Shown piece after piece: positions 32,329 to 56,654 of a stretch of DNA of 64,000 bases. The notes beneath the pieces are model-generated. The model worked only from the letters and a program-made list of their open reading frames with translations. It was not told the DNA's origin and ran no database searches. A program made the translations under genes and the position numbers. The stretch is from NCBI GenBank assembly GCA_963665095.1, contig OY762069.1, positions 896,001-960,000 of the forward strand. Reading direction: 5' to 3'. Each line of letters starts with the position of its first letter. Positions within the stretch are counted from its first letter, which is position 1. This DNA comes from an uncultured Desulfobacter sp. (GTDB taxonomy: Bacteria > Desulfobacterota > Desulfobacteria > Desulfobacterales > Desulfobacteraceae).

Positions 32329-32453
32329 CTTGAACAAGCCGTTGCAGCCGATCCGGGGTTCTAGCGGCTTTTTGAAAGTGCTCGGTTTTCGAAAATGTTT
32401 GGCTTTTACAATCTGCTCGGCACAAGCCCCGGGCGGCTGAACTACACGTTATA
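32329..32453 (+). repeat. attC (long host type)
   Basis: CTTGAAC-AAGCC-GTTGCAGCCG...CGGCTGAAC-TACAC-GTTATA; similar to 40293-40400. Confidence 0.85.
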
Positions 32454-34707
32454 GTGCGACACGATGTTGCATGATTGTATGTATAGGAGGTAAATGTAAG
32501 ACACTGAATATACTCGGTGTATCCCCACCGGTTCCCTAGGTGAGCGTGCTATCGTTGCGCTGATGACGGGGTGCGAAGCCTCACCGACAATGTACCGAAT
32601 CGGGTTTGAATGGCGACAGGAGAACCCCTCCGGAAATCCCATCCGGTTAAGGGCTAGGGTCGGACAATATGGCAAGATTAATCGAAGAGCTTTAAGCGCC
32701 GTCAGTGAGCGCCTAACCTACTGGGATTAACAGGTTATATGTATACTTCCCTGCGTTTGTATACATGAACAGGATGCAAGTCTTCTAACTGCTTGCACGG
32801 GATCTTAAGTTTCATCGGCGTAGAGGCCTGCCTAAGTTGTCCATTAAGAGCAATCATGTGGAACGTGGAAACGTTGTCACTCCCCATGTGCAATACATGG
32901 AAAGCTAACCGCAAGGCAAGCCTGTGGAGGGGCAGCAGTAAGAATTCGGAAAAAAGCAAACGCCGTTTTGTAATGAAACGGATAGAGCATGAAACATGGC
33001 TCACGTAAAACCCAAAACCTTCGATTTTGGAGACATGCGTGCAGACGTCCGATTGGTGTTGACTTGCGAGAGAATTTGGAGAACCGCTTAAGATGGGAAA
33101 GCAAATGACGGCTTCGGCTGGTGCACCTGTCGACTCTGCTAAGAAATGGGCATCCATTGTTTGGAACAAAGCCCGGGCTGAAGTTAGAAGGCTGCAAATG
33201 CGTATCGCAAAGGCTGTAAAGGAAGAAAGATGGGGCAAAGTCAAAGCCCTTCAGTACTTACTTACTCATTCGTTCTACGCCAAGGCCTTGGCTGTCAAAC
33301 GAGTGACCTCAAATAAAGGGAAAAAGACTCCAGGCGTAGACGGTGTTTTATGGAAAGGCGCCCGAGCCAAATGGCAGGCTGTTTTCAGCCTGCAAAGACG
33401 AGGTTATAGACCGCAACCGCTAAGGCGGATTTATATCCCCAAAAAAAACGGTAAGAAACGTCCTTTAAGCATTCCAACAATGCTTTGCAGAGCTATGCAG
33501 GCGCTGTTCAAGTTAGCCTTGGCCCCAGTAGCGGAGACCATAGGAGATCGTAATTCTTACGGCTTCCGTGAAGGCCGCAGTTGTGCAGATGCAATTGCAG
33601 CAGCGTTCAATGCACTCTCCAAGCCTAATTCGGCTACATGGATATTGGAAGCGGACATCAAAGGGTGTTATGACAACATCAGTCAGGAATGGATGTTGGA
33701 AAATATCCCCATGGACAAAGTCGTTCTTAAAAAGTGGTTGACGGCAGGGTATGTGGAAGACGGCAAGCTATACCCTTCGCGCAAAGGAACCCCACAGGGC
33801 GGGATTATCAGTCCCACCTTGTCGAATTTAACCCTCGACGGACTGGAAAAAGCCGTTCATGATGCAGTTCCCCGCCGATGCAGGGTTAATTTTGTTCGAT
33901 ATGCAGATGACTTTATCGTCACAGGCAAGTCCAAACGCCTGCTCGAAGAACAGGTCAAACCCGCAGTCGAAGCGTTTCTAACTGAACGTGGTCTATCATT
34001 ATCTGAAGAAAAGACCATGATCACGCATATAACAGACGGATTTACGTTCCTTGGCCAAACTTTTCGAAAAACCGGAAATGTACTGCACATCACCCCGGCA
34101 AAAAAGGGAGTTCTCGCCTTTAAAGAAAAGCTCAGTGAACTGATCCATAAACATGCCGGCGGTCCATTGGAACCATTGGTCAAAAAGTTAAACCAGACCC
34201 TCCGGGGTTGGGGAAACTATCACCGGCACGTAGTCTCATCGGAAACATTTTCTCTTATTGATACGTTTGTTTACGAACAGCTGTGGAGAATGATTAAAAA
34301 GCGTCACCGGAAGAAATCCTCAAAATGGTTGAAAAACCGTTACTGGACTGACGGAAAACACAAGTGGATATTCACTGTCAAGAGCCGAAATAAAAAAGGG
34401 CCTTGCAGATATCACGTCATTCACCTAATTTCACTAGGGATAAAACGATATATCAAAATTAAAGCAGATGCAAATCCATATGATCCCGAATACAGCTATT
34501 ATTTCTGGCGTAGACGGAATCAAAAGGAGTCACGGTTACTCCCTACGCTGTCAGCCAGGGAATACCGCCAAACGCAAGCTGCATGAGGTAAACAGCCGGG
34601 GCGTCCCACAAGGTCGTCCTTTATAAACGCTTGAGCCGTATGACGGGAAACTGTCACGTACGGTTCTTAGGGGGGAAAGGGGCAGAGATGCCCCTGACCT
34701 ACCCGAT
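32454..34707 (+). mobile_element. Group II intron (second lineage), full length, inserted after the sixth base of the attC core
   Basis: 5' GTGCG; domain V GAGCCGTATGACGGGAAACTGTCACGTACGGTTC; 3' CCTACCCGAT; removal gives GTTATA|CA, complementary to TGTATAAC at 36243-36250. Confidence 0.92.
33093..34586 (+). CDS. ltrA: Group II intron RT/maturase (CL-like N-terminus, no HNH domain)
   Basis: VRRLQMRIAKA, TPGVDG, GTPQGGIISP, VRYADDF, LRGWGNYH. Confidence 0.93.
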   Translation: MGKQMTASAGAPVDSAKKWASIVWNKARAEVRRLQMRIAKAVKEERWGKVKALQYLLTHSFYAKALAVKRVTSNKGKKTPGVDGVLWKGARAKWQAVFSLQRRGYRPQPLRRIYIPKKNGKKRPLSIPTMLCRAMQALFKLALAPVAETIGDRNSYGFREGRSCADAIAAAFNALSKPNSATWILEADIKGCYDNISQEWMLENIPMDKVVLKKWLTAGYVEDGKLYPSRKGTPQGGIISPTLSNLTLDGLEKAVHDAVPRRCRVNFVRYADDFIVTGKSKRLLEEQVKPAVEAFLTERGLSLSEEKTMITHITDGFTFLGQTFRKTGNVLHITPAKKGVLAFKEKLSELIHKHAGGPLEPLVKKLNQTLRGWGNYHRHVVSSETFSLIDTFVYEQLWRMIKKRHRKKSSKWLKNRYWTDGKHKWIFTVKSRNKKGPCRYHVIHLISLGIKRYIKIKADANPYDPEYSYYFWRRRNQKESRLLPTLSAREYRQTQAA

Positions 34708-34741
34708 CAATAGATATGTTAAATAAAATTGGAGCAAACAA

Positions 34742-36214
34742 ATGGAAGAGCAAAAAACACATAGGCTGTGGGTTCCTGTTGAATTCAGTCAAGAATGGCT
34801 TGAGTGTGATACTTCTACGATAGATGATATATCCCCTTCATGGATTGACAGAAGGGAAATCCTTCAAACTAACTCAAAAGAATATCAGGAATTTATTACC
34901 GAACTCAAACGTGAACATGCAATTGAGACCGGAATTGTAGAACGAATGTACGATCTTGAAAAAGGCATAACTGAGACATTTATCAAAAAAGGGTTTGTTG
35001 AATCATACATTAGTCATAATGATACAAACGTTCCAGTTCCGAAATTGCTTTCTCATTTATCCGATCATCTTGATGCAGTTGATTTTGTCTTTGATGTAGT
35101 TAAAGAAAATAGAGATTTAACAATTGGTTTTATAAAAGAACTTCATGCACTCGTAACTCGTAACCAGGAGTATGCCGAAGGAAGAGACCAATTTGGCAGT
35201 AGAACTAAAATAGATCTGAGAAAAGGTGCTTTCAAAATCCTTGAAAATAATCCAACTCGTGAAGATGGAACTAAAATATTATATTGTCCACCTGATCATG
35301 TTCAGGCCGAAATGGATAATCTGATTTCTATTTACAATGATGCCGAGAATAAAAACATCCATCCATTAATTTGTGCTACCTGGTTTCACCATGCATTCAC
35401 TACAATTCACCCATTTCAAGATGGCAATGGTCGTATTGCAAGACTAATTGCAAGTTTGATTTTGATTAAACATGGCCTTTTTCCTTTTACAGTTCTAAGA
35501 GAAGAGGCCAAAGCTAAATATATTGATGCTCTTGAAAAGGCCGATGCACATGAATTTCAACCTCTAATAGACTATTTTGCCGAAGTCCAAAAAAGACATA
35601 TTGAAAAGGCTCTAAATCTAAAAGAGGTTTCAAGCTCATCATTTGATGAAGTAGCAGATATATTTTCAGGCAAGATTGAGAATTGGCAAAAGAAAAAGGT
35701 TGCTGAGAGAGAGAAACTGCTTGATAAAGCCAGAATAGATGTTTTTAACTTTTGCCTCAAACATTTGAATCAGATTTCTGATCAACTTAGCGCCAAACTC
35801 AATGGAAATGCGAACATTACTATTCAAAAATGTTCCCCAGATAAGGATGAAAGACAAGATTTTTATTATGGTCAAATAATTAAATACGCTAAGAAACATG
35901 ATTACTATTTTAACAGGAATTTTCCAAAGGGTTGGTTAACTTTTAGAGTTGAATTAGCAGAAAATAAAAAATATCAACTTTGTGTTACTATCCACCACTA
36001 TGGCTATGAGGATAGCACCTTAGCTATTGGAGCATTTCTTGAATATTTGATACCTCATGAAAGCAATGATCGAATAGACGAAGCCCTTCCCTTAGAAATT
36101 AAACCTCATGTTATTTCCCTGACTGGAGATATAATGACGAAAGAAAAGAACATCGCAGTTTTTATAAAAAATGCAGTTACCTTAACTATGGCTCAAATTG
36201 CAAGTGAACTATAG
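34742..36214 (+). CDS. Cassette: Fic family protein with C-terminal extension
   Basis: Canonical HPFQDGNGRIAR. Confidence 0.92.
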   Translation: MEEQKTHRLWVPVEFSQEWLECDTSTIDDISPSWIDRREILQTNSKEYQEFITELKREHAIETGIVERMYDLEKGITETFIKKGFVESYISHNDTNVPVPKLLSHLSDHLDAVDFVFDVVKENRDLTIGFIKELHALVTRNQEYAEGRDQFGSRTKIDLRKGAFKILENNPTREDGTKILYCPPDHVQAEMDNLISIYNDAENKNIHPLICATWFHHAFTTIHPFQDGNGRIARLIASLILIKHGLFPFTVLREEAKAKYIDALEKADAHEFQPLIDYFAEVQKRHIEKALNLKEVSSSSFDEVADIFSGKIENWQKKKVAEREKLLDKARIDVFNFCLKHLNQISDQLSAKLNGNANITIQKCSPDKDERQDFYYGQIIKYAKKHDYYFNRNFPKGWLTFRVELAENKKYQLCVTIHHYGYEDSTLAIGAFLEYLIPHESNDRIDEALPLEIKPHVISLTGDIMTKEKNIAVFIKNAVTLTMAQIASEL

Positions 36215-36241
36215 CGAACTATGAAAAGAAGAGAGCAATAA

Positions 36242-37396
36242 ATGTATAACAAGGTTATGTACGATATCGAGCACTGCCGACGCGGAGAATTTGGCACCCA
36301 CTGGGAGCTATGCGACACATGCGGCCACCTTGAAAAAGGATACAACTCCTGCCGAAACCGCCATTGTCCGGGTTGAAACAATATCGCCCGTCACAGATGG
36401 GTGACGGCCAGGATCAACGATCTGCTTCCGGTGTCCTATCACCACTGCGTTTTCACATTGCCGGATATCTTCAACCCTTTGTGCCGGTTCAACCGGCGGG
36501 TAATGTATGACCTGTTGTTTGAAAGCGCCTCCCAGACCCTGCTGGAATTCGGGGAGAATCCAAAGCGTCTTGGAGCCAAGATCGGGTTCTACGGTATCCT
36601 CCACACCTGGGGCGGCAAACTCTGGCTGCATCCCCACATCCATTTCATTGTCACTGCAGGCGGAATAAACACTTATGGGGAATGGGTGGAGCCCAAGTAC
36701 AGCTCAACATTCCTGTTTCCGGTCAAAGCGCTTTCAAATGTATTCAGGGCAAAGTTCCTTAACGGCCTTATTGCAGCCCACGGTCGAGGACGATTAAACA
36801 TCCCGGATGAACTGGCTCATTTTTCAAAACCCTGCGCATTCAGGCAATGGCTGTACCATACCGCTCCAAAAGACTGGGTGGTATATTCCAAACCACCATT
36901 CTCAGGTCCAGCCGAAGTCGTTAAATATATCGGTAGATACACCCATTCAACAGCCATCAGCAACAACAGGATTATATCCGTTAACAACGAGACTGTGGAG
37001 TTCTGGTTTAAAAACACCCGGAATAAATCCAAGTGGGAAACAACTTCTTTACCGGTAATGAGCTTCATTGATCGTTTCCTTTTGCATGTTCTTCCAAAAC
37101 ACTTTCATCGGATCAGATATTATGGGTTTCTGGCCAACGGGCAGGCAGGGCGAAATATATCGGAAATACGCCAGGCATTGAATGACCGGGATACCCCTGA
37201 TCCTGAACCCCTGAAAGAACAGACGCCTCAATGCCCGGCCTGCGGCAAAGGGAACATGATAACGATCCTGGTGCTGGACGGTCATGGCAACGTGGTGAAA
37301 GACGACTTACCAAAAACCAAGGCCAAGCAAATTCCGGCTAAATCAGGGGAACCATTAAAAGCTTTACTTTGGAAACAATTACCGATATCAAAATAG
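36242..37396 (+). pseudogene. Element C: 5'-truncated IS91-like transposase with in-frame TGA (36374-36376)
   Basis: ...YNSCRNRHCPG*...LHTWG, HPHIH, YIGRY; begins at the Fic cassette inverse core GTATAAC. Confidence 0.8.
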
Positions 37397-37613
37397 GCAG
37401 TTCCCTGTCAGGGACTCGTATCGGCAATCCGCTCCGGTACCAGGTTTTTCGGCTCTTTTTCAAGCCTGACCGGATAAAATAGAAGGAAGAATCTTAATGC
37501 TCACTCAATTTTACCAGGCAAATTTTAAAATCTGTGCTGTTAAATCTAAGTTTGAAAAAAAGGATTCCCCTGCTTTTACCCAAGAAATCAACTGCGAGGC
37601 TTCGACCCGGTTA

Positions 37614-37702
37614 ATGTAACAAAGAGTTGAAGACGGAAAAATACCCGCCGGGTTTTACGTTGTTTTTGGGTTATAATTTTTCCGCTTAACTCAACGTTGC
37701 AC
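37614..37702 (+). repeat. attC
   Basis: ATGTAAC-AAAGA-GTTGAAG-A-CGGAAAAA...TTTTTCCG-CTTAAC-TCAAC-GTTGCAC. Confidence 0.75.
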
Positions 37703-37737
37703 TAAAGAACACTATACCTGTATTGCTGAGAACATAT

Positions 37738-38538
37738 ATGAATGATTCTGAAATTACTTTTGAATTAAAAGGTTGGAGTGGTGTTGCAGTTGTCGTAGGT
37801 CTTATCATTTTCGGGTTGGTGGGGCATCATTATATGTACAACTACAACCCGGAATTGGAGGAATTGACCCAAGCTTTGCAGTCGGATGATCCATCAGTGA
37901 TCGGAAAGGCTTTGTACGAATCAGGTAGGTTTACGATGGGCAAGGGGCATAAGCTCATTCCCTACATTCTGCCTCACCTTAGCGACGATAGAGATTTGCC
38001 TGAAAAGTTGAAACAAAAGATTATTAAAGGGATCCAATCCACATCCGGCAGCATTCCAGGAGTAGAATCAGATTTAGGGGGAATTTTTAGCATTGGTTTC
38101 ACTGCAGCACTAACGCTTCAAAGCTTGGTAATAAAGGATGTGGAAAATAAGCGATGGATCGGCGGTAAATATCGAGCTCTAATTGTTGAATATATCCTTG
38201 ATGAGATTGGGCCATATAGCGATGAATTCATATTAAAAAATGGACTCTGGGCGGTAAATCAAATTCATGATGAGAGGTTGGTTCCATTTTGGTTTCAATG
38301 TCTGGAAATAGAGTCTGAATCCATTCGGTCACCAGCCCTTTCCGGATTATATTACTATATCTACGATAGAAACCATGGTTTATTTACATGGCATCCAGAA
38401 AAGGAAATCGACGCAAATATGATTGAAAATCTGAAATCTTGCTTATTTGATAATTCTGAGCTTGTGCGCAGATCTGCATCGCTTGTGACGAATGCGTTAG
38501 CTGAGGCCGGTTTGGATGTAATGGGTATAGACAACTAA
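37738..38538 (+). CDS. Cassette: membrane-anchored hypothetical protein, HEAT-repeat-like
   Basis: N-terminal TM helix; helical motifs LQSDDPSV..AL, ESESIR, DNSELVRRSA. Confidence 0.55.
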   Translation: MNDSEITFELKGWSGVAVVVGLIIFGLVGHHYMYNYNPELEELTQALQSDDPSVIGKALYESGRFTMGKGHKLIPYILPHLSDDRDLPEKLKQKIIKGIQSTSGSIPGVESDLGGIFSIGFTAALTLQSLVIKDVENKRWIGGKYRALIVEYILDEIGPYSDEFILKNGLWAVNQIHDERLVPFWFQCLEIESESIRSPALSGLYYYIYDRNHGLFTWHPEKEIDANMIENLKSCLFDNSELVRRSASLVTNALAEAGLDVMGIDN

Positions 38539-38545
38539 AATAATT

Positions 38546-38607: not shown

Positions 38608-38626
38608 CTAAAATGGAGATCGTGAC

Positions 38627-39486: not shown

Positions 39487-40400
39487 CTATAACAAAACGC
39501 TGCTCGTGCCCAGATAAATCCGAATCGTTGGGATTCCACGGAATAGGAGGATGAAACTCGATATTGTTACCCAGTGGGTGAAAGTCCCACATGAGCAAAG
39601 CATAGCCGGCAGCTCATTAGTGAAATCCACAGGCAAAACTGGTAACGGAAGTCTGATGCTGGATGGAACAAGATTGCAGGCTCTGTACTGAGCCCCGAAA
39701 AATGTATAGTTGTGGTCCACTAGGATAAACCCTGCTTGCAGGGGGAAAGCCGACGCATTGTAGCGTGACGGAAGGCAGCAGACTTACAGATGCTATGGCA
39801 AGCCTGTAAGTCACCACCGGGGTCTTCGACCAGGGCATGTTCTCAAAGGGGTAGCTCAGGAACTGGGGAGAGCCGGTTGGTTCCTTGCAGAAACAGAACG
39901 GTATCAGGAGTTCCAGCCATGGGCAAAATCCCGGCATCTGTATGGAAACCCTATCCTGCAGATGAGTTCACCACTGGTGAAGACACAAACGTTAAAGCAG
40001 GGCAATACGCCACGAAAGCCTGGAAGCACTGGCTTGGCCGAAGGCACCGAAACGGTAAACTTAACTTCAAGAAGTTTAGCAGACTTCTTAATTGGTACCC
40101 ATTACCGCGGCCTCGAATTGTTCACAATATCTAAAAGGACCTGCAGGGCAGCAAAGTTATGCGCCGATCAGGGTGTCGCCTGATTGGTTGACGGCTCGGT
40201 AAAAAGAGCCTGAATCGAGGAACCGTATGAGGGAAATCTTCACGTACGGATCTGTGGGGAGGGCGTCGGGTAACCGATGCCTTTACCCGGAAGGCCGACC
40301 CGGGGTTCTATCGGCTTTTCGAAAGTCCTTGGTTTTCGAAAAACCTTGGCTTTTACAATCTGCTCGGCCAAGCCACGGGCGGCTGAACTACACGTTATGT
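39487..40400 (+). repeat. attC (long type) split by a group II intron in its left arm
   Basis: CTATAAC-AAAACGCTG | intron | GCCGACCCGGGG...CGGCTGAACTACAC-GTTATGT. Confidence 0.8.
39506..40292 (+). mobile_element. Group II intron (third lineage), internally deleted
   Basis: 5' GTGCCCAG; only the RT C-terminal remnant (PLPRPRIVHNI); domain V GAACCGTATGAGGGAAATCTTCACGTACGGATCT; 3' end approximate. Confidence 0.8.
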
Positions 40401-41729: not shown

Positions 41730-43626
41730 TGATAACAATACGCTCGTCGTGCCCAGATAAATCCGAATCGTTGGGATTCAACCGGACAGGAGGATGAAAT
41801 TCGATAATGTTACCCAGTGGGTGTAAGTCCCACATGAACAAAGCTTAGCCGGCAGTTCATTAGTGAAATCCACAGGCAAAGCCGGAGACGGAGGTCTGAA
41901 GCTGGATGGAACAAGATTGCAGGCTCTGCACTGAGCCCCGAAAAATGTATAGTTGTGGTCCATAAGGATAAACCCTGAAAGTGCGGGGGGAAAGCCGACG
42001 CATTCCAGCGTGACGGAAGGCAGCAGACTTACAGGCGCTATGGCAAGCCTGGGAGTCACCATCGGGGTCTTAGACCAGGGCATGTTCTCAAAGGGGTAGC
42101 TCGGGAACTGGGGAGGTCCGAATGCCTCCTTTTGCAGAAACGGTAAGGTGGATACCGTCCGGAAGGTAAAACACCTGAGGCAGCAGGAATCTCTCACTCC
42201 TGATGCTTGAAAAAGAAAAGTGGGAGGAAAATAAGGTACCGGGGGAGGATAGTTAATAGCGAACGAGCCTGGGAAGGACATTCGGAAGTCTTAGCTGATC
42301 ATAATACTGATGTTCAGGGGGGAATAAAACCCGAACGGCAAGGCGGGGAAGTGGTGCCCGAAGCGACCCGCTGAAGGAAAGGAGAGGCAGGGTATAACGT
42401 TTTTCCGGCAGGAACTATGGGAGACTCCCAGAGGTCACAAACCATATCAACGGACAGCCGGGAAATTGCGTCGCAGACAGCTATGAAATCCAAGGGAAAC
42501 ACAAAAGAACGGATAGCCGAACCTCTACCGATACTGGTGCCGGAGTCGTCGCTTGTCCATATCAGGACAATGGCAAAACAGGACCTACAGATGACGTTTA
42601 CATCTCTGGTCCACAAAGTTGACCTGTTCCTGCTGAATAAATCGTTTCGACAGTTGTGTAAAAACAGTGCCACCGGAGTAGACAAGGTCACGGTGGACAA
42701 GGGACCCCCCAGGGTGGAGTGATTTCGCCGGTACTCAGTAATATATTCCTGCACTATGTGCTGGACGACTGGTTTGCAAAAGTGGTTCAACCCCGGTTGA
42801 AGGGTAAAAGCTTTCTGATCAGGTTTGCCGATGACTTCATCGTCGGACTGCAGCTGGAATCAGATGCCAAAAGATTGTTGGAAGTTTTGCCAAGGCGGTT
42901 CAACCGCTACACTCTTGAACTTCATCCGAAAAAGACACGCCTGATTGCATTCGGAAAACCGGCCCGGAAGGGAAAGCCACAGGGGACGTTCGATTTCCTC
43001 GGGTTCACGTATTACTGGGGCAAAAGCCTTAAAGGCTACTGGGTGATCAAGAAGAAAACCACCCGCAAAAGGCGCAATCGGTTCATGCGGATGCTGTGGA
43101 GCTGGTGCAAGAAGCACAGGCATGACCCTATACGCGGTCAGCAGGAAACCTTGTGCAGCAAGTTGATGGGATTTTATCAATATTTCGGAGTACGGAGCAA
43201 TTTTAAGGTGCTGGAGGAGGTGTACGAATATGCTGCCACAGCCTGGAAACATTGGCTTGGCCAAAGGCATAGGAACGGGATATTGAACTACAAAAAGTTC
43301 AGCAGACTTCTAACCGGACATCCCCTGCCCAGGCCCCGGATTGTTCACAATATCTGAAAGGCTGCAAGGGCAGCAAAGTTATGCGCCAATCGGGGTGTCG
43401 CCTGATTGGTCGATGGCCCGGTAAAAGGGCCGGAGTCGAGGAACCGTACGAGGGAAATCTTCACGTACGGGTCTGTGGGGAGGGCGTCGGGTAACCGATG
43501 CCTTTACCCGGAAGAGGGGCCAGGCTTACTGCGCGGCCTTTCTAAAGTCCCTGGTTCAGGAAGATTAAACTTTTTATCGGAAGTTTTGGGGTTTAAAAAG
43601 CCTGGCCCCTCAAGTCCTCGTTATGC
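41730..43626 (+). repeat. attC (long type) split by a group II intron in its left arm
   Basis: TGATAAC-AATACGCTC | intron | GAGGGGCCAGGCTTACTGCG...GCCTGGCCCCTC...GTTATGC. Confidence 0.8.
41749..43513 (+). mobile_element. Group II intron (third lineage) with deleted/frameshifted RT
   Basis: 5' GTGCCCAG near-identical to the 39506 copy; RT pieces 42417-42722 (ATGVDKVT) and 42719-43357 (IRFADDF). Confidence 0.85.
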
Positions 43627-45684: not shown

Positions 45685-46080
45685 ATGAAACCAAATGAAT
45701 TATCACCATGTTTTTGCACAAATGATGTAGATAACTGTCGCCAATTTTATACCAAATATTTTGCGGCAAAAATTATTTTTGATTGTGGTTGGTACGTAAA
45801 TTTAAGCTTTGGAGAAGATGGCCCAACGATCCAGTTCATGCAACCGCAAGAAGATATGCCAACATATGGCGGGACAGGCATCACGCTCAATTTTAAAGTC
45901 GAAAATGTAGATGCTGAATATAATCGGTTAATTGATGCGGGCTTTCAAATAGCAATGCCTTTGGAAGACCATCCTTGGGGCGATAGAGGATTTTCTGTAA
46001 TTGATCCCATTGGTAATTCTGTTTATATCTATTCAGACAGAGAACCAACAGAAGAGTTTAAGCAATATTATAAGGGCTAA
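45685..46080 (+). CDS. Cassette: VOC/glyoxalase family protein
   Basis: FDCGWYV, NVDAEY, DHPWGDRGFSVIDPIGN. Confidence 0.88.
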   Translation: MKPNELSPCFCTNDVDNCRQFYTKYFAAKIIFDCGWYVNLSFGEDGPTIQFMQPQEDMPTYGGTGITLNFKVENVDAEYNRLIDAGFQIAMPLEDHPWGDRGFSVIDPIGNSVYIYSDREPTEEFKQYYKG

Positions 46081-46206
46081 CAAAGCCGCTGAACCCGACC
46101 GGGCTTATCTGCACGGCGTTTTGAAGCTGGTTGGTTAATGAAATTTTGAACTTTTTACTGGAGCTGGTGTGGTTTTAACGCCCGGCCGGTTAGCTCCCCG
46201 TTGGGG
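46075..46206 (+). repeat. attC (long host type)
   Basis: GGCTAAC-AAAGCCGCTGAACCCGACCGGGC...GCCCGGCCGGTTAGCTCCCC-GTTGGGG; similar to 24207-24331. Confidence 0.85.
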
Positions 46207-47211
46207 GTGCGACACGAGGTCGCATTATTGGCTGTTTGGCGGGCCAGTCGGTCCTGACCAAACCCGGCATTCTCCTGCCGGTACCCTATGTGGCATGCGG
46301 TTACCGGTGCATCCGGCAACGGTGTGAAGCCCAACCGACAAAGTACCGAATTCCGCAGGTGCGGAAGGGGTGGAAGCCGTGAGGCGGATACCCTCCTGGA
46401 AGCCTCATTCCGGGTGAGGGCAAGGGTTTGAATGATATGGTCAAATTAATTGAATGTTCCGTAAGTACCGTCAGGGAGAACAAGCTAAAGAGGCTGGTAA
46501 CCTTGGACCAAAAGGTGAGCGGTCAGGTTGCAGGTTTCTTAGCTGCCTGCACGTAGATGTTGCGCCGCCGGTGCTTAAGGACAGGCCTAAGTCATCCATT
46601 AATTGGCAATAATGTGGAACGTGGAAAGTCGGCCATGTCCCTATGGATAAGATGATCCTCACCAAATGTCTGGCTGCAGGGTTTATGGAAAATGGTAAGC
46701 TCTTTCCAACAGGTCGGGGGACACCCCAGGGAGGCATTGCCTCCCCGATACTTGCCAACATGGTTCTGGACGGCATTGAAGAAACTGCTAAATCCGTTGC
46801 ACCTGTCAGAGACCGGCGTAACGGTAAGGACATCAGTTCTAAAATCAACGTTGTCCGGTACACTGATGACTTCATCGTTACCGGTGCCACCCGGGAACTT
46901 CTTGAAGATAAGGTCAAACCGGCAATAATCAGCTTTCTTTCGGAACGGGATCTTTCCCTGTGATGCCAATCCTTTTGATCCGGAACACCAACAATACTTC
47001 CGGACAAGACGTGTGAAACCTAAGATGATCCCAGTCACAGCTGCCGAGGAAATATGTGATGGAATAACTGTAAATTTCAGTATTGGCAAGGGAAAACAGT
47101 CGGGCGGCCCCGCAAGGCTTAGTCTTAGAAATGCTTGAGCCGTATGACGGGAAACTGTCATGTACGGTTCTGAGGGGGGAAAGGAACTGTAAAGTTCCTG
47201 ACCTACCCGAT
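46207..47211 (+). mobile_element. Group II intron (second lineage), internally deleted
   Basis: 5' GTGCG, RT fragment 46643-46963 (GTPQGG, VRYTDDF), domain V/VI, 3' CCTACCCGAT. Confidence 0.88.
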
Positions 47212-47280
47212 CGTTAAAAACCAACGGGATGCAAAAAAAGGCATATTGTAAATAGTATCACTCGGTGCTATATTATAGTC

Positions 47281-47649
47281 ATGCGAAAATTAATGACAAA
47301 GCACTTTGTGAAATGGGCTTCAAAGCAAAAAATACCAATCAATAATTTAGAAACAGCATTGGAAGAAGTCGGTAGCGGAAATTACGAAGCAAATTTGGGT
47401 GGTCACATTTACAAAAAAAGAATTCGTTTCCCTGGTCAAGGCAAAAGAGGTAGTGGAAGAACGATTGTTTGCTATGAAAAAGGAAGTAGAATCATTTTTA
47501 TCCATGGTTTCTCAAAAAATGAAAAATCAAACCTTTCACCCAAAGAGCTATTTGTCTTCAAGGAACTCGCTAAAATTTTACTTTCTTTTTCTGAAAGTGA
47601 AATTGATATAGCGGTCCAAAATGGTGATTTAAAAGAGGTGGCAACATGA
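47281..47649 (+). CDS. Cassette: RelE/ParE toxin (duplicate of 29259-29627)
   Basis: Near-identical protein. Confidence 0.88.
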   Translation: MRKLMTKHFVKWASKQKIPINNLETALEEVGSGNYEANLGGHIYKKRIRFPGQGKRGSGRTIVCYEKGSRIIFIHGFSKNEKSNLSPKELFVFKELAKILLSFSESEIDIAVQNGDLKEVAT

Positions 47650-47951
47650 GAAAATCAATTTCAGATTCAATAACGGAAACCGTAAGGGACTTAAATAAAA
47701 GTGGCCTTGTGGATGACATCACTCTAAGAAATATAGAAAAATTATGTCTTCCGGAAGTTAAAGACTATTCCCCAAAAAAAATAACCGAAATTAGAAAAAA
47801 ATTTAATTTAAGCCAAGCCGCATTAGCAAGCGTTTTCAATATTAGCACCTCTACTGTACAGAAATGGGAACAGGGTAATAAAAAACCTACAGGAGCCTCA
47901 AGGAAATTGTTGGATATCATGGAAAGAAAAGGCTTAGAGGCTTTAATATAA
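47646..47951 (+). CDS. Cassette: HTH antitoxin (duplicate of 29624-29929)
   Basis: Differs by two residues. Confidence 0.88.
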   Translation: MRKSISDSITETVRDLNKSGLVDDITLRNIEKLCLPEVKDYSPKKITEIRKKFNLSQAALASVFNISTSTVQKWEQGNKKPTGASRKLLDIMERKGLEALI

Positions 47952-47960
47952 ATTCGCACA

Positions 47961-48609
47961 ATAGGGGCAGGACTCCCCATTACTGAGGAGCCCTCCCACA
48001 CCATCCGGCATACGGATCTCGTACCAAGGCGGTTCGGCTGGTATGAATAAAATCAGTTGTAGGTTATCCCACCGATTTTATCGGGTTTTGGGCAAAGTCT
48101 TGCTATGGAAATTTCGGCCACTGCCGCATTATTCCCATAAAATCCTTTTACTTACTCACCACAACCATTTACCCAAGCCATTCGGCCCGGGTACCGTTCA
48201 GGCCTTCATCGGGGTGAGGCCTCCGGGTGTACTTCTCCCATGCGGTCAGGACCAGTTACCCGGCCCTCAGCCAATCCGGCACATGGGAGATCTCCCGGGG
48301 TAAACACGTGTCTTTCAGTACGTGAATGCCGGATTTACGGACATACCCTGTAATGGATAGAGGACTTCACCTTGTTGTGCAGGCTCGTCCAGGTATGTGC
48401 GCCTTATATCCGATTCCTGTACGTCATCCCGTACCTTCGTGGTACCTTGCCTCAGCAAGGCGGCTTCCTCCCGAAGCACCGTCACCGGTACCCCGTTGCA
48501 CTACCACTACACCCTTCGCCTCCATCCGGCTGGGTCTAAGACTTGCCAAAGGCATTGAAATCGTTTACGTTTGACTCACTTTTAAGAACACGTGCCGTGC
48601 CCGGCACAC
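47961..48609 (-). mobile_element. ORF-less group IIC-attC intron inserted at GCACA|AC
   Basis: Both ends match intron 27155-29065; no RT; attC resumes at 48610-48708. Confidence 0.88.
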
Positions 48610-49773
48610 ACAAAACGCTTCAGGTCGAAAGACCTTGGTTTCTGAAAAGAATTTAATTCGGGGAAGTCCTTGGTTTTAGTCTCCGGGCGGCTGAGCTCCC
48701 CGTTCTCGGTGCGACACGAGGTCGCATTATTGGCTGTTTGGCGGGCCAGTCGGTCCTGACCAAACCCGGCATTCTCCTGCCGGTACCATAGGTGGCATGC
48801 GGTTCCCGGTGCATCCGGCAACGGTGTGAAGCCCAAACGACAAAGTACCGAATTCCGCAGCTGCGGAAGGGGTGGAAGCCGTGAGGCGGATACCCTCCTG
48901 GAAGCCTCAATCCGGGTGAGGGCAAGGGTTTGGATGATATGGTCAAAGTAGTTGAATGTTCCGTAAGTACCGTCAGGGAGAACAAGCTAAAGAGGCTGGT
49001 AAGCTTGGACCAAAAGGTGAGCGGTCAGGTTGCAGGTTTCGGAACTGGCTGCACGGAGATGTTGCGCCGCCGGTGCTTAAGGGCAGACCTAAGTCATCCA
49101 TAAATTGGCAATAATGCGGAACGTGGAAACCCCGTATCTTCGCCGGGAGTATTCGGCAGGTGAAACCGTAAGGCACACTGATGGAGGTGCGGGCGTAAGA
49201 TCCAGGAAAAAGCGAATGCCGTCTTGTAATGAGATGGATACGGATTGAGGCGTATATCCCCAACATTACCCGGCCCGAAAGGGAACTGACGTCCTGCGGG
49301 TGTGACTACAGACACACCCGGGCAGGTGTTTCTTTGTGAGAGAGTTTGGAGAATCTTTGAGGATGGGAAAGCAAATGACGGCAATGGCTGGTGCGCCCAT
49401 CAGCAGCTTTACGCTGTTAAAAGACTGTAGATACGTATCGCAAAGGTTGTTAAAGTAGCACACGGGATATACGCCAGAGGTTCTTTCAAAAGGATGCATT
49501 TTCTTTTGACTCGGAAAAAGAACAGTACTTTCCGAGAGAATGCTCAAGGACATATGCTATGAATTAACTGTAAATTTCATTATTGTCAGGGCCGTCTTGA
49601 AAATGCAGCCAAATCCCCGGTTTGAAAATGTATGTTCTTAGCTGGTTTTTCTTCTCTTAAAAATCAAATTTAAAAATTTCGTCTTCTTCATTTTTTTCCT
49701 TTCTTTGCCCTCTGCTTTTTTCCGTACATACTGATCTTATTCATGTCTGATTTGAATCGGAGGCAATATGTAG

Positions 49774-50340
49774 ATGGGACTACTCAAGAAAAGAAGGTGC
49801 CGAAATTGTAGAAGATTATTCGCTCCTAATCCAAGAAATATAGACTCTCAAAAATACTGTTCCAGATCTGAGTGCAGAAAAGCCAGCAAAAGGTGCAGCC
49901 AGAAAAAATGGCTGAACAAGCCTGAAAATCGAAACTACTTTTGTGGGCCTGCCCATGTTGAACGTGTTCAGGAATGGAGAAAGAAGAATCCCGGATATTG
50001 GAAGAAGACCAAAAGCCCAGATACGTTACAAGACTCGATATGTCCCCAACAGGCTGAAAATAAACAGGATTCAACGCAATTCATGGACAATGCGTTACAA
50101 GATTTCTTACGGGCGCAACCTCCTGTCATTATAGGGTTAATCGCCAACTTTACAGGCAGTGCGTTACAAGATGACATCGCTTCCACGCTCCTTCGTATGA
50201 AAAAATACGGGCAAGACATTTTATGTTCACAACCCCAAAAAGAAGGAGAGCAAAATGATTGCAAAGGCCCCCATTTTACCATCCAGGGTTCGAAAAACAC
50301 CCCAAAGCTTCAGTTGGATCGATCATCGCCTGGTGCGTGA
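49774..50340 (+). CDS. IS21 passenger: Cys-rich hypothetical protein
   Basis: CRNC...YCSRSEC. Confidence 0.65.
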   Translation: MGLLKKRRCRNCRRLFAPNPRNIDSQKYCSRSECRKASKRCSQKKWLNKPENRNYFCGPAHVERVQEWRKKNPGYWKKTKSPDTLQDSICPQQAENKQDSTQFMDNALQDFLRAQPPVIIGLIANFTGSALQDDIASTLLRMKKYGQDILCSQPQKEGEQNDCKGPHFTIQGSKNTPKLQLDRSSPGA

Positions 50341-50641
50341 ACGGCACATTGACAGGTGTACACACTCCCAGTCCGCCCTATATCTGTTTCTGGTGTGTGT
50401 GGCCGACAGTCAAGGCATCAGCTACTATGGAGATAAGGCGATCATGGATCGGCTGTGCATGGATTCTGATGGCCTGAAGACAGCACGTTCCGGGTTAATA
50501 CAGAATGGGCTGATTGCCTGGCAGAGACCTATTTACCAGGTGCTTGCCCTTGACCCTGCTCCTGGTAAATCAAAACGGCACGGCTCCATGCTGCGTCTTT
50601 CAGATATTCTAAAAGCAGCAGCGGAGGGCAACCATGATTGA
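50255..50641 (+). CDS. IS21 passenger: small HTH-like protein
   Basis: FSWIDHRL, LYLFLVCVAD, SYYGD; overlaps the istA start. Confidence 0.6.
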   Translation: MIAKAPILPSRVRKTPQSFSWIDHRLVRERHIDRCTHSQSALYLFLVCVADSQGISYYGDKAIMDRLCMDSDGLKTARSGLIQNGLIAWQRPIYQVLALDPAPGKSKRHGSMLRLSDILKAAAEGNHD

Positions 50642-51608
50642 TTACGAAACCTATGTTCAAATCAGAAATTACTTTACCCGAGACGGCCTGACATACAGCC
50701 AGATTGCCAATGCCCTTGATCTGGACCCCAGGACAGTTGCCAGGTGGGCCAACCTGAAAAGGTACCAGCCCAGACAGTCAGCCCCCAGAGAAAGCAAGCT
50801 TGATCCGTATAAGAACGCCATCCTGCATATGCTTGAAAAACATCCCTACAGTTCCCGCCAGATATTTCAACGAATCACCCAGGATGGTTTTGCCGGGGGC
50901 ATCACCATTGTTGAGGATTATGTCAGGAAGGTGCGGCCGCCCAAAACAAAGGCGTATTTGAAACTGAGTTTTGCTCCGGGTGAAGCTGCCCAGGTGGACT
51001 GGGGTTCTTATAGTACAGTAAGGGTGGGCAACACGACCCGGCGGTTGAGCTTTTTTGTGATGGTGATGTGCCACAGCCGCATGATGTACGTTGAGTTCAC
51101 GGTCTCCCAGACCATGGAGCATTTTTTAGGCTGCCACCAGAATGCATTTGAGTTTTTTGGAAAGGTGCCGGAAAAGGTCATGGTGGACAATCTCAAATCC
51201 GCTGTTCTAAAAAGACTGCTGGGGAAAGCCCCGGTCTTCAACCCCAGATACCTTGATTTTGCAGATTATTACGGATTTACAATTGTTCCCTGTAATGTGC
51301 GCAAGGGTAATGAAAAAGGCCGGGTTGAAAATGCTGTGGGCTATGTCAAAAAGAATCTGCTCAACGGTCTTGAAATCCCTGATTTTAAGATCATGGAGCC
51401 CACCTGCAAACACTGGCTTGATACTGTCGCCAATGTCAGAACCCACGGAGAGACCGGTCAAAAGCCCGCATGAGAATGATCACAAAAAATCATGGAAAAA
51501 TTAAAGATAATTTGCAAGATATGCCAGGGATGAGGCAGAAGCTCCCCCGTTTATCTCGCAAATAATCAATGGAACTTCTGCCCCTATTACCCTAACAGGG
51601 CAGGAGAT

Positions 51609-52184
51609 ATGCTATCAGAACTTATTAAAAACAAAAATCTTTTTTTCCATCTTTACGAAATCGATAAAAATACAGCAAAACAGTACAGACAGTTGCCTTG
51701 TCCGCATTGTGGAGGCCCCTTATATTTCAGCAATTACATGCGCAAGCCCCGGGGAGAGCCTGAGGGCGTGCCGGAGGAATTCTTTATTCAGTTCAGCCTA
51801 TGTTGTGGAACCGAAGGGTGTCGCAAAAGATTGATGCCGCCGTCCTGCCGTTTTCTGGGGAGAAAAGTCTACTGGTTTGCAGTTATTCTGTGTGTTTTAA
51901 CAGACTGGCAAAATACCAATGAAAAAATCACCGTTTATGATTTGTCCATACGAACTGGCATTAGCCGGAACACAATAAACCGCTGGCTTGCCTTTTTTCA
52001 GGATACATTTCCAGTGAGCCGAACCTGGCGAAGGCTTCGGGGGCAGATATCCGCTGGTGTCAGTAACAGCCGTCTGCCGTCAAGTTTCATCAATTATTGC
52101 CGGGCGGTGAAATCCAACGCCGAAAACGCACTTGTATCAAGCCTGATAATCTTATCAGGCGGGTCCAAAATCAGGGCCGGATAA
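51609..52184 (+). CDS. Transposon accessory protein (Zn finger + HTH)
   Basis: CPHCGG, CCGTEGC, GISRNTINRW. Confidence 0.65.
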   Translation: MLSELIKNKNLFFHLYEIDKNTAKQYRQLPCPHCGGPLYFSNYMRKPRGEPEGVPEEFFIQFSLCCGTEGCRKRLMPPSCRFLGRKVYWFAVILCVLTDWQNTNEKITVYDLSIRTGISRNTINRWLAFFQDTFPVSRTWRRLRGQISAGVSNSRLPSSFINYCRAVKSNAENALVSSLIILSGGSKIRAG

Positions 52185-52290
52185 TCTCGCGCAGAGGATG
52201 AACATAGACAAATATATGCAGGCTGTTTTACCACCTGATTTCAGACGTTGATCCGAAATTTTAACCTGAAATTAAAAAGGAGCCTGATTT

Positions 52291-53736
52291 ATGAGTGGTA
52301 AAACACAGCACCCGGCAGACCTGTGGGCATTATTTCGCTTTTCGGTTATCGGCGGTTTACTGGCACGCCCTCCGGCAAAGGGAGAGTTGCAAAATGAACT
52401 GACCCGGCTCGCAGGTCAAATCTATTCTCATCCTGTGACGAACAAACCGACCTGTTTTCATTTTTCCACAATTGAGGCCTGGTATTACAGGGCAAAAAAT
52501 TGCCAGGACCCAATTCTGGCTCTGGGCCGTAAAGTTCGTTCAGATATGGGCAAATCCACAGCATTGAATGCTGAATTGATCCGCCTTCTTGGTGTCCAGT
52601 ACAACACTTATCCGCAATGGAGCTATCAGCTTCATTGCGACAACCTGGCAGCTGAAATCGCTGAACAGGGCCTGTGTGAGAATCCGCCGTCCTATGCAAG
52701 TGTGAGAAGGCGTATGGTTGAACGGGGTTGGAGAAAAAAGGCTTCCAAGAACAAAAATCAAACATCCGGACAGAAATCAGCTTTTAAGCGATTAGAAACG
52801 TATGAAGTCCGTAGTTATGAAACCGAAAACATCCATGAATTATGGCATCTGGACTTTCACGAATGCAGCAGGCGCGTGGTGGACGAAAAAGGTCAGTGGC
52901 ATACGCCCAAGGCATTGTGCATTCTTGATGATCGCTCCCGTCTGTGTTGTCATATTCAATGGTATTTGAATGAAACGGCAGAGGTTTTGATCCACGGCTT
53001 GTCCCAGGCGTTTTACAAAAGAGGGCTTCCCAGAGCCTTGATGACAGATAATGGTTCTGCCATGATTGCTCATGAAACCGGCAACGGACTTAAACGATTG
53101 GGCGTCAGTCATGAGACCACGTTGCCATACTCGCCCTATCAAAATGGGAAGCAGGAAGCCTTTTGGGGTACACTTGAAGGCCGTTTGATCGCCATGCTGA
53201 GCCGGATGGATTCTTTGACCCTGGTATATTTAAATCAGGTCTCCCAGGCCTGGATCGAGATGGAATACAACAAGTCAACCCATGATGAAATTCATATGTC
53301 GCCATTGCAATGCGCCCTTGACGGCAAGGATGTGTCACGTCCTGCACCGGAACCTGAACAGCTTCAATTTTCGTTTACAGCCTGTGAATCCAGAAAACAG
53401 CGTCTGTCCGATGGTACCATCTCTTTGATGGGCATCCGGTTTGAAATCCCTTCACGGTTTAATCATATCCAGCGTCTTCATGTCTGTTTTTGCTCCTGGG
53501 ATAAATCGGTTGCCTGGCTGATAGATAAACGAACCGGAAATAAGCTTGCCGCAATTTATCCCCAGGACAAGACAAAGAATGCTTCAGCAATCCGTCGTAT
53601 CAAATCCACTCCGGATGAAATTAACCCTGGCCATGAAACCCTGTCCGGATCAGAACCGGCCCTGCTTAAAAAGCTCTTGTCCGATTATGCAGCAACCGGA
53701 ATGCCTTGTGCCTACTTGCCAATGGAGGAAAAGTGA
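52291..53736 (+). CDS. DDE (rve) transposase/integrase
   Basis: LWHLD, LDDRSR, TDNGS, QNGKQE. Confidence 0.88.
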   Translation: MSGKTQHPADLWALFRFSVIGGLLARPPAKGELQNELTRLAGQIYSHPVTNKPTCFHFSTIEAWYYRAKNCQDPILALGRKVRSDMGKSTALNAELIRLLGVQYNTYPQWSYQLHCDNLAAEIAEQGLCENPPSYASVRRRMVERGWRKKASKNKNQTSGQKSAFKRLETYEVRSYETENIHELWHLDFHECSRRVVDEKGQWHTPKALCILDDRSRLCCHIQWYLNETAEVLIHGLSQAFYKRGLPRALMTDNGSAMIAHETGNGLKRLGVSHETTLPYSPYQNGKQEAFWGTLEGRLIAMLSRMDSLTLVYLNQVSQAWIEMEYNKSTHDEIHMSPLQCALDGKDVSRPAPEPEQLQFSFTACESRKQRLSDGTISLMGIRFEIPSRFNHIQRLHVCFCSWDKSVAWLIDKRTGNKLAAIYPQDKTKNASAIRRIKSTPDEINPGHETLSGSEPALLKKLLSDYAATGMPCAYLPMEEK

Positions 53737-54560
53737 TGAACAGCAAACGATTATTGGCTTATTATGGATTGAAGTACAATCCTTTTTTACCAAATATTCC
53801 TGTGGACTCATTATGGCATCCACCCCGGATGGAGGCATTTATTACACGCCTTGAAAATATGACCATGAACGGTGGATTTGCATTAATCGCCGGTGAACCC
53901 GGTCTTGGCAAATCCAAGACACTACAGGCGATTGCCCATCAGCTTGGCAAGCTTGATGAAGTCGTTGTCGGCGTTATGGAGCGCCCCCAAAGCAGCGTGG
54001 CCGATTTCTATCGGGAAATGGGGACACTGTTTGGTGTCAATTTGAGTCCGGCCAACCGTTACGGAGGGTTCAAAGATCTGCGGCAACGATGGAAAAATCA
54101 TATTAAAACAACCCTGTTCAGACCCGTCCTGCTCATTGATGAGGCTCAGGAAATGCTTACCGGATGCCTGAATGAGCTTCGGTTGCTCAACAGTATGGAT
54201 TTTGACTCCCAGAATTTATTGACCACCATTATCTGTGGTGATACCCGGCTGCCGGAACGGTTCAGAACCAGTGCATTGGTAGCCCTGGGGAGTCGACTCC
54301 GGTTCCGGTTAAAATTGGATCCTTATACCCGGGAAGAATTGTTGGATTATATAGCGCATTGCCTAAATCAGGCCGGAGCTCCTCAACTCATGACAAAACC
54401 TTTAATCACCGCTTTGGTAGAGCACTGTACAGGAAACTTACGGGTCCTCAATAATATGTCGGCAGAACTGCTTGAAGTGGGCGTTCAAAGAGAGCTGCCG
54501 CAACTGGATGAGAAACTTTTCATAGAGCTTTTTTCACTGAAACCGTCGCCAACCAGATAA
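53736..54560 (+). CDS. ExeA-family AAA ATPase (transposition helper)
   Basis: YGLKYNPF, GEPGLGKS, LIDEAQ, GNLR. Confidence 0.88.
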   Translation: MNSKRLLAYYGLKYNPFLPNIPVDSLWHPPRMEAFITRLENMTMNGGFALIAGEPGLGKSKTLQAIAHQLGKLDEVVVGVMERPQSSVADFYREMGTLFGVNLSPANRYGGFKDLRQRWKNHIKTTLFRPVLLIDEAQEMLTGCLNELRLLNSMDFDSQNLLTTIICGDTRLPERFRTSALVALGSRLRFRLKLDPYTREELLDYIAHCLNQAGAPQLMTKPLITALVEHCTGNLRVLNNMSAELLEVGVQRELPQLDEKLFIELFSLKPSPTR

Positions 54561-54571
54561 GAGGTATAAAA

Positions 54572-54814
54572 ATGACAATCAATGAAACACAACTTGAAAA
54601 AACAATGGCTGAAATTGTCGACGAGCTGGGCAATCTGGTCATGGAGTTGATCCTTGTCAGTTTAAAAAAAATAAACTCGGAAAATCATCTTTTGACAGAA
54701 TTGCTGGAGATCAAACAAGAGGAACAAAGAGAAAATGAATTTTATGGTTTTGGTGAAACGGAGCCGGGACATCCTGGGGAGGAAACCCGGCAAGGGATAG
54801 CCAAAAGCAGGTAG
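54572..54814 (+). CDS. Small acidic hypothetical protein
   Basis: GAGG RBS, follows the ATPase; GC hairpin downstream. Confidence 0.5.
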   Translation: MTINETQLEKTMAEIVDELGNLVMELILVSLKKINSENHLLTELLEIKQEEQRENEFYGFGETEPGHPGEETRQGIAKSR

Positions 54815-55645
54815 CATTGAATAATGCGCCGGGGGAAGCGGGGTTGACCTGCTTCCCCTTTCTGTATTATTCAAGCTTTCCTGCTCATGCCTTAAAAAAC
54901 CCAATAAAATCAGTCGGAGCGCAGCGACATCTGCTAATCATTGAAAATACAGTTATGCCTTTCCCTGATTTATCCTGATTGTCGCTCCATTGATTATCGT
55001 GCTTCCTCTCAGCAGAGATGTATGCCCTGGAATTGCCCCACCTATACCCTCTGCCGTCAGAACCCTATGATATCGGTGTGGTAAAGCAGGTACGGGCTTC
55101 AAGACAGTACAGGGTAGTCATCGATACAAATGCTTACACAGTACCCGCCCAGCTGGCAGGGGTGGCTTTGACTGCCAAGCTTTACCCTGATCGGATCTGC
55201 TTTTACCATGAAGACAAGTTGGTTGCCCGCCATGTCAGATCCTATGGCCGCAAAAACGACCTTGAAGATCCTGATCACTCTAAAATCCTTTTGAGCCAGC
55301 GCAAAAAGGCCAGAGACCAGGCAATTTATATGCGTTTTTTAAGCCTCTCTGACAAGGCCCGGGAGTATTACAGGCAATTGCAGAACAGGCGGCTTAACGC
55401 CTCCCATCATGTACGGCAAATCGTGGCCTTGAGTGAAATCTACTCCCGGGAACAAGTTGCCATGGCCATTGAAGATGCCTTTAAGTTCTCTGCATTCTCA
55501 TGTGAATACATCGCCAACCTCCTTGAGCAGCGGGTTCGGTCTCCCCAGGAGCCCGGAGCCCTGCATGTTACACATAAAGCAGATTTACTGAACCTGACAA
55601 TCCAGGAGCCTGATCTTAATATTTATACCGCCATAGGAGATAAAA

Positions 55646-56380
55646 ATGCCTGATCTTGAGAAATGCCTGTCCCACTTAAAACTACCTTATATCAGGGAAA
55701 ACTATGAGTCAGTGGCTACCCTGGCTGCCCAGAAGCAATGGAGCCACGTTCAATATCTATCAGAGCTTGCCAGGCATGAATCACTACTGCGCCATGATAA
55801 AACCATCCAGCGCCGTATCCGTATGGCCAAGTTCCCGGTAATCAAAACCCTGGACCAGTTCAACTGGTCATGGCCCAGAAAAATCAATCAGGCTCAGATC
55901 CAGAATCTGTTCAGACTCAAGTTCATTGAAGAAAAGGGTAACATTATCGTGATCGGCCCGGTCGGTGTTGGGAAAACACATATTGCGACTGCTTTAGGTT
56001 ACCAGGCCTGCCTGAAAAACCATACGGTTCTGTTCTCTTCTGCCATTGATATCGTCAACAATCTGGTGGCAGCCCAGAAGGCGGGTCAGTTAAAGCAGGA
56101 ACTGAGAAAATACCTCAAGCCAACTTTGTTGATCATGGATGAACTGGGCTACCTGCCCATTGACAAGATTGGGGCAGACCTGTTGTTCCAAATTATCAGT
56201 CAGCGCTATGAGCAAGGAGCCATCATAATAACCACAAACCGGGTGTTCAAAGATTGGCCGGAGATCTTCAACAATGACATGACATTAACATCAGCTTTGC
56301 TGGACAGGCTTCTTCACCACACCGAGCCTGTGGTCATTGAGGGTAAGAGTTTTAGAATGAAAGATGTGACGGAAGAATAA
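55646..56380 (+). CDS. istB: IS21 helper ATPase
   Basis: GPVGVGKTH, IMDELGYLP, LLDRLLHH. Confidence 0.93.
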   Translation: MPDLEKCLSHLKLPYIRENYESVATLAAQKQWSHVQYLSELARHESLLRHDKTIQRRIRMAKFPVIKTLDQFNWSWPRKINQAQIQNLFRLKFIEEKGNIIVIGPVGVGKTHIATALGYQACLKNHTVLFSSAIDIVNNLVAAQKAGQLKQELRKYLKPTLLIMDELGYLPIDKIGADLLFQIISQRYEQGAIIITTNRVFKDWPEIFNNDMTLTSALLDRLLHHTEPVVIEGKSFRMKDVTEE

Positions 56381-56654
56381 CAAAGCCGAGGCCGGTCTAC
56401 ATGCATCTGGAGGCCGGCCCTTTAATCGCCTACATTTTTAAACCGGGAGATTTATGACATGTTCACGCCCCGCCTGACAATTATTGCTGAAACAACCGGA
56501 CGGCCCCGCAAGGCTTAGTCTTAGAAATGCTTGAGCCGTATGACGGGAAACTGTCACGTACGGTTCTGAGGGGGCCTGGGGTAGATAACTACCCCCGGCT
56601 ACCCGATCCTAAAAACACCATTGACAATAGTATCAATATTAGTATCATATAGAC

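Follow-up and report, generated by a model that had tools for sequence, protein, structure and literature searches.

In reviews, the targeting of attC, the recombination site of integron gene cassettes, is listed as a speciality of class C group II introns. A 64,000-nucleotide (nt) stretch of DNA from an uncultured Desulfobacter sp. (GenBank assembly GCA_963665095.1, contig OY762069.1, positions 896,001 to 960,000 of the forward strand; hereafter the window, numbered from its first letter) raises the question of whether, and by what means, introns of another class have come to use the same sites, because its cassette array holds three group II introns in the sense orientation, each beginning just past the GTT core of a different attC site. 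Our answer, to which we assign a probability of about 0.8 and which rests on sequence comparison, is that these introns belong to a lineage specialised on the R' core of attC, in which pairing of the intron's exon-binding site 1 (EBS1) with the GTT-containing intron-binding site 1 (IBS1) would set the insertion point and a further determinant would be needed.

The three introns (Table 1) begin with GTGCG; their 5' ends, at 32454, 46207, and 48709, follow GTTATA, GTTGGGG, and GTTCTCG and thus lie 6, 7, and 7 nt, respectively, after the G of the attC core, just as an earlier, sequence-only reading of the window had noticed. Rfam matches to domain I (32513, 46263, and 48765) and to domains V/VI (34631, 47135, and 56531) all lie on the plus strand, and GT..AT ends and domains V-VI are present (Rfam RF00029; intron 1 joint). 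Only intron 1 is intact, and an intron-free allele, present as a contig in run X3, defines its ends by joining 32453 directly to 34708, omitting 2,254 nt with no ambiguity. Intron 2, in which domain I runs straight into a fragment of the reverse transcriptase (RT), is probably dead, and intron 3 matches a form of about 1 kb devoid of an open reading frame (ORF) (998 nt, genome 2927565), here carrying about 7 kb of IS21-type genes. Domain I is 95% identical between introns 2 and 3 and 66% identical between introns 1 and 2; we therefore recognise two subfamilies, intron 1 and introns 2/3. In the L-box pairing test, the first two sites reached 7/7; site 3 reached only 4/7, owing to the splitting of its R'' box by a reverse-oriented intron, and its L boxes pair 6/7 by eye. 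The R'' box of the Fic-domain cassette behind intron 1 is the exact reverse complement (8/8) of the rejoined GTTATA|CA, and a 96% identical Fic cassette lies intron-free behind a different attC site in the same-genus genome G403. Across the genome, all six 5' ends of the lineage sit after an attC-like site (one with ATT for GTT). Replication strand is uninformative (four of the six copies have their sense on the leading-strand sequence, with two arrays each way).

Table 1. Positions, in the window, of the three introns, their attC sites, and the associated cassettes and genes
Feature	Positions	Strand	Evidence or remarks
attC site 1	32329..32453	+	L boxes pair 7/7; R' core GTTATA (32448-32453) is IBS1
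Intron 1, intact IIB1/CL1-type group II intron, 2,254 nt	32454..34707	+	Rfam; intron-free joint 32453-34708
Candidate EBS2 of intron 1	32705..32710	+	Covariation across relatives; 2/6 pairing with its own site
EBS1 of intron 1 (TCTAAC)	32784..32789	+	5/6 pairing with GTTATA; top signal of unbiased window scan
RT/maturase, 497 amino acids (aa), YADD motif, no endonuclease domain found	33093..34586	+	RVT_N, RVT_1, GIIM
Fic-domain cassette, intron 1 at its 5' end	34708..36250	+	Own R'' at 36243-36250; intron-free copy in G403
attC site 2	46075..46206	+	L boxes 7/7; GTTGGGG at 46200-46206
Intron 2, 1,005 nt, internally deleted (domain I, RT fragment, domains V-VI)	46207..47211	+	EBS1 CTTAGC at 46538-46543
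RelE/helix-turn-helix toxin-antitoxin cassette behind intron 2	47212..47961	+	Intron-free paralogue from about 29184
attC site 3	48613..48708	+	R'' split by reverse-oriented intron; GTTCTCG at 48702-48708
Intron 3, ORF-less; carries IS21-type transposase/ATPase genes	48709..56607	+	EBS1 CGGAAC at 49040-49045
HicB-containing cassette behind intron 3	56608..57239	+	G403: same-family intron, same 3' junction, different attC
Integron integrase gene (tyrosine recombinase)	14166..15560	-	Pfam Phage_integrase and SAM_4; heads the cassette array, divergent from it

To which class the introns belong was decided from the RT of intron 1. It matches the RVT_N, RVT_1, and GIIM domains with no match to an HNH domain, and its best solved relative is the T.el4h maturase (PDB code 6ME0; 547 bits; E = 3 × 10−163), as against 141 bits for LtrA and 133 bits for the best class C RT; T.el4h is classed as IIB1/CL1 in PMC8643678. 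In a quick tree of 76 rows, it falls in a clade of 41 (support, 100), far from the class C-type RT of the window, and an RPLSIP motif is present in 41/41 rows of this subclade and in 2/35 of the others. In a reduced quick tree, which leaves out 36 rows (those on long branches, fragments, and close relatives that were redundant or unlabelled) and takes in the RT of L202, a member of the intron 2/3 family, the 26 RT rows from members that bear the motif or are flanked by attC fall into a single clade (SH-aLRT, 96), with L202 as sister to the intron 1 subclade; both trees are searches made without bootstrap and without a full reference set of intron classes. The introns are thus a distinct CL1/IIB1-like lineage lacking an endonuclease and are not class C, in agreement with the earlier proposal of a CL-like RT without an HNH domain in a non-class-C intron.

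The positions of the relatives bear directly on the proposed specialisation. A search with the RT recovered 41 genome loci. Of the close relatives (identity of 68% or more), all 14 for which a 5' end is present begin after GTT, whereas none of the 13 more distant relatives with a flank (43 to 52%) lies behind attC by eye; 11 of the latter occupy one coding motif, which we take to be the HSDxGxQ motif of IS3 transposases. A flank-blind search with an intron-internal motif then matched at least 121 metagenome stretches. Genome loci included, there were 148 motif hits, from which we removed 25 that lacked a 5' end, 8 duplicates, and 5 whose exon was shorter than 12 nt, leaving 110 distinct 5' ends. 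Among the matches listed, 100 of the 110 lie 3 to 7 nt past GTT (offsets: +3, 2; +4, 8; +5, 45; +6, 43; +7, 2), against a background of 1,208 of 14,957 positions (8%), and L boxes pair at 6/7 or better in 63 of 95 testable sites as opposed to 47 of 1,361 control GTTs. The expectation that homologues are found mostly at attC is therefore borne out in this set. The ten members without GTT comprise, by eye, three with variant attC-like cores, one after a strong hairpin, two after the 3' end of another intron, and four elsewhere. A survey of the genus added six further copies from 3 of 24 genomes, every one after GTT. Together with the RT scores and the tree, this survey refutes the reading that the copies are mislabelled or inverted attC introns of class C (IIC-attC introns), or sit at attC by chance; we consider it to have next to no likelihood, since the Rfam domain I model also differs (D1D4-7 versus D1D4-3) and the introns have a 6-nt EBS1 together with EBS2.

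Named hosts include Desulfobacteraceae, Desulfocapsa, Syntrophobacteraceae, Thiotrichaceae, and "Ca. Aminicenantes", and ORF-less forms of 998 to 1,003 nt recur. A close full-length relative was not found among the top plasmid matches (the best 25 are 52 to 55% identical; in 9 uninspected records the best place is 60 to 80% identical), and the viral contigs gave no match to the intron-internal motif. Eight viral matches to our first 5'-end DNA pattern were dropped as chance hits, the three of them checked at the 5'-end motif having neither an RT nor an EBS1 loop. The lineage seems to be environmental. Several further features of the relatives were observed. (i) Many '+5' members (metagenome loci L068 to L188) start with TCGCG or TTGCG and end with GGT instead of GTGCG...GAT. 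(ii) The sole two '+7' junctions among the 110 are those of this window (46200-46206 and 48702-48708), and both fit one extra base. (iii) L161 and L179 begin right after the 3' end of another group II intron, pair poorly through EBS1, and possibly represent tandem insertion at one site or recombination. (iv) A related CL1-like clade (L019 to L030, L035, and L037) resides at one motif of seeming IS3-family transposase genes of Bacillota.

How the insertion point is chosen was addressed by an unbiased scan, in which all 6-nt windows of domain I were compared with all exon windows across the 64 introns whose domain I is complete. The top signal was the Id3 loop, i.e., EBS1, against positions -6 to -1, with a pairing score of 4.78 of 6 compared to 2.92 upon permutation; permutation within a register only gave 4.47, and the observed value was reached in none of 5,000 trials. 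EBS1-IBS1 pairing scores 4.5 of 6 or better in 55 of the 64 introns. The register shifts in step with the offset: the AAC triplet occupies positions 4 to 6 of EBS1 in all 30 '+6' introns, 3 to 5 in all 23 '+5' introns, 2 to 4 in the '+4' introns (n = 2), and 1 to 3 in the '+3' intron (n = 1). In the intron 2/3 family, EBS1 changes with its target (CTCAAC with GTTGTG or GTTGGG, CGTAAC and CCTAAC with GTTATG, and CGGAAC with GTTTCT), and members outside attC with an altered EBS1 pair with their own flanks (L081, 6/6, with 5/5 in EBS2; L114, 5/6). EBS2, in the ID multibranch loop, covaries weakly (3.06 versus a null of 2.50; 0/2,000 permutations). A candidate EBS3 base gave a mixed result, pairing with IBS3 in 13 of 22 complete introns (7/8 when it is G, 5/11 when it is C). 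The sequence-only reading had proposed a structure-guided strategy; as the main mechanism this is not upheld, because differing flanks are matched by differing EBS1 loops, the register shifts with EBS1, and a weaker EBS2 accompanies it, as is usual for IIB homing. Folding domain I as a single sequence gave z = 0.16 and was not used. When rejoined exons were matched automatically to R'' boxes downstream, 15 introns gave no result, and such matches were examined by eye in the cassettes of the window; a check for integrase genes beside the low-scoring sites, as would mark an attI site, gave one short match only, beside a good attC.

Several observations weigh against this interpretation. The predicted EBS2 pairs at 4/5 or better in just 18 of the 64 introns, and at 2/6 in intron 1, and the EBS2a pair typical of IIB1 introns shows no covariation at positions -12 to -15. 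The latter pair can be absent in introns that target single-stranded DNA (PMC8643678). Introns 2 and 3, which start 7 nt past the G, pair better when shifted by one base (4.5 versus 2.5 and 3.5); for intron 2, comparison with the R'' box of the RelE cassette and with its intron-free paralogue suggests one extra base at the junction. Moreover, the relatives are not independent of each other, and the permutation counts consequently overstate significance; 32 of the 95 testable sites fall below 6/7 in the attC heuristic; and the 76-row tree, in which long branches were kept, does not resolve the two subclades as one. The joined form of intron 1 comes from a contig in a run of unknown kind, and splicing and mobility are predictions. 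Finally, 21,036 genome sites pair with EBS1 and EBS2 of intron 1 as well as the real site does.

This last number defines what pairing leaves unexplained. For two other members of the family, 304 and 1,841 genome sites pair as well as the real ones, and perfect attC-like sites number only three and two among these (none in a 1-in-10 sample of the intron 1 set). Pairing is therefore too weak for the observed specificity, and there must be another restriction to attC, be it the hairpin, a protein contact with the L' region, or selection combined with cassette transport. If cassettes were shuffled after insertion, IBS2 would be exchanged but most of IBS1 retained, and the weak EBS2 signal may have this cause.

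In one alternative, which we regard as tentative and less likely than not, the attC hairpin would be an essential second determinant: as with IIC-attC introns, the ribonucleoprotein would be drawn to attC in its folded or extruded form, and EBS1 would set only the register. Such a determinant would account for the presence of 6/6 copies at attC despite the low specificity of pairing alone, as well as for the weak EBS2 and the missing EBS2a; L113, the member without GTT noted above, follows a strong hairpin, and a structural role has been speculated upon in the available part of PMC7923331. On the other hand, the DNA upstream of L081 and L114, both retargeted, does not fold stably (-4.0 and -4.1 kcal/mol), the three attC sites of the window fold no better than shuffled sequences on either strand (z = -0.05 to -0.51), and EBS1 and EBS2 would find their targets, the GTT and the end of L', occupied if the top strand were folded. 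In another scenario, many EBS-matching sites are invaded and the enrichment at attC arises from purifying selection against genic insertions and from integrase-driven spread of intron-bearing cassettes. Insertion at R' seems to do the upstream site no harm, the Fic cassette moves from one attC site to another, and one cassette with the same 3' junction is seen behind different attC sites in two genomes, all of which would suit such a history; but EBS1 retains AAC across RTs that are about 50 to 70% identical, pointing to long-term tuning to GTT, a splicing intron would be tolerated in a sense gene, retargeted members in coding-like flanks do exist, and neutral intergenic sites ought to be hit too. 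We regard selection of this kind as an unlikely source of the pattern. An extended form of the preferred, EBS1-directed reading would see here a second, convergent lineage of integron parasites, from class CL1, that uses two keys, sliding-register EBS1-GTT pairing and recognition of the attC hairpin or extruded strand, and that becomes integrase-spread cargo while leaving the site intact; this remains a conjecture that we would rather doubt than accept. If true, it would mean hairpin or extruded-strand recognition by a IIB intron, which is unreported in the parts of the papers cited here that were available.

Under the EBS1-directed reading, the following course of events is envisaged. As sequence comparison shows, the AAC of EBS1 pairs with the top-strand GTT and its neighbours, its place in the loop sets the insertion point (+3 to +6), and EBS2 pairs more weakly with the L' end and spacer. 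The intron would then reverse splice into the single-stranded top strand and be primed at the replication fork, a route described in the accessible part of PMC4424553 as general for introns without an endonuclease. The upstream attC would keep its GTT and L boxes after insertion. Integrase crossover in the attC core takes place at G/TT, and insertion 3' of this point would therefore make the intron the 5' end of the downstream cassette. It could thus be transcribed with the array, splice from the cassette mRNA, and be moved by the integrase together with its cassette, and the ORF-less forms of about 1 kb would probably be mobilised in trans. In genomes G000 and G403, the HicB cassette stands behind different attC sites with an identical 3' junction, a pattern that fits transport and also repeated insertion. 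A 2,204-nt contig of a relative from RNA run X17 shows neither splicing nor expression.

Comparison with known systems places the lineage more precisely. UHB.I2, from a soda-lake metagenome, is a IIB1/CL1 intron whose RT lacks an endonuclease and which lies in the sense orientation directly past an attC; 'no sequence conservation' was noted in its exons, and structure was speculated upon (Sonbol and Siam 2021; PMC7923331). By eye, its Id3 loop is 11 nt long and has AAC placed as in the '+5' introns, and its RT carries the RPLSIP motif, resemblances from which we judge that it probably belongs to the same lineage. It was reported as a single case, and the available part of that paper describes no lineage, EBS1-core link, or sliding register; one member is thus probably already in print without a targeting mechanism. 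CL1 and class E introns, likewise non-class-C introns within cassette arrays, are mentioned in Shewanella integrons in the accessible part of PMC9229058, which gives no insertion point, strand, or mode of targeting for them. The earlier premise that described attC-specific introns are class C was accordingly incomplete. A search of the literature outside subscription papers (among the latter, the original IIC-attC surveys) found no description of an EBS1-programmed attC lineage.

The IIC-attC introns (S.ma.I2 and relatives) are also endonuclease-less and target attC, but, as described in the available parts of PMC3001079 and PMC4424553, they are class C, insert in the bottom strand opposite to the cassettes and within R'' (TTGT/T), thereby parting the gene from its attC, and depend on the hairpin with an EBS1 of 3 to 4 bp and no EBS2. 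The present lineage, in contrast, is CL1, inserts in the top strand in or just past R', and combines a 6-nt EBS1 with EBS2; introns of both kinds occur in this array. With T.el4h and EcI5 it shares the RT class, base-pair targeting, and the IIB1 layout of EBS1 and EBS2, EBS2 being located three nt past the 5' branch of ID(iv) (PMC8643678, in part). It differs from them in its weak EBS2, in the absence of EBS2a covariation, and in targeting a recombination site that occurs repeatedly rather than a single homing gene. The T.el4h RT, which has an endonuclease, is 562 aa long compared to the 497 aa of the intron 1 RT.

The existence of a cross-phylum CL1 clade at the same sites, on the other strand and through base pairing, implies at least two origins of attC targeting, by different means; the proposal of an independent lineage inserting on the attC top strand is in this respect supported by the non-class-C RT and the insertions 3 to 7 nt past the G of the R' GTT. 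The lineage also offers a natural series (four EBS1 registers, retargeted outliers, and ORF-less derivatives) in which the possible use of DNA structure by a IIB intron could be examined, predicts a route by which introns would travel as part of gene cassettes, and, as an endonuclease-free programmable intron, could be used to tag integron arrays.

The array in which these introns lie is long; its attC sites begin at 16528, and it carries toxin-antitoxin, glyoxalase, Fic, and unknown genes. Rfam distinguishes three kinds of group II introns in the window, namely, D1D4-7 (+), D1D4-6 (+), and D1D4-3 (-). The D1D4-6 introns, a second sense-strand family (39507-40292 and 41750-43513, +; also at G000 5173630 and 1625522), are inserted within attC directly past R'' and a spacer, with a flank common to four 5' ends in the genome; our guess is that they are class E-like. 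The reverse-oriented D1D4-3 introns (27155-29063, 47962-48613, and 57240-60388, -) split R'' boxes as IIC-attC introns do, and the RT at 27245-28585 is intact, with best plasmid matches of just 52 to 56% identity. Elements composed of an IS91-like transposase and a tyrosine recombinase (about 24750-27154 and 29940-32335) end precisely at R'' boxes; one does so at the attC preceding intron 1. Outside these subjects, a pyrrolysine insertion element (7814-7913, -) lies within a trimethylamine methyltransferase gene region.

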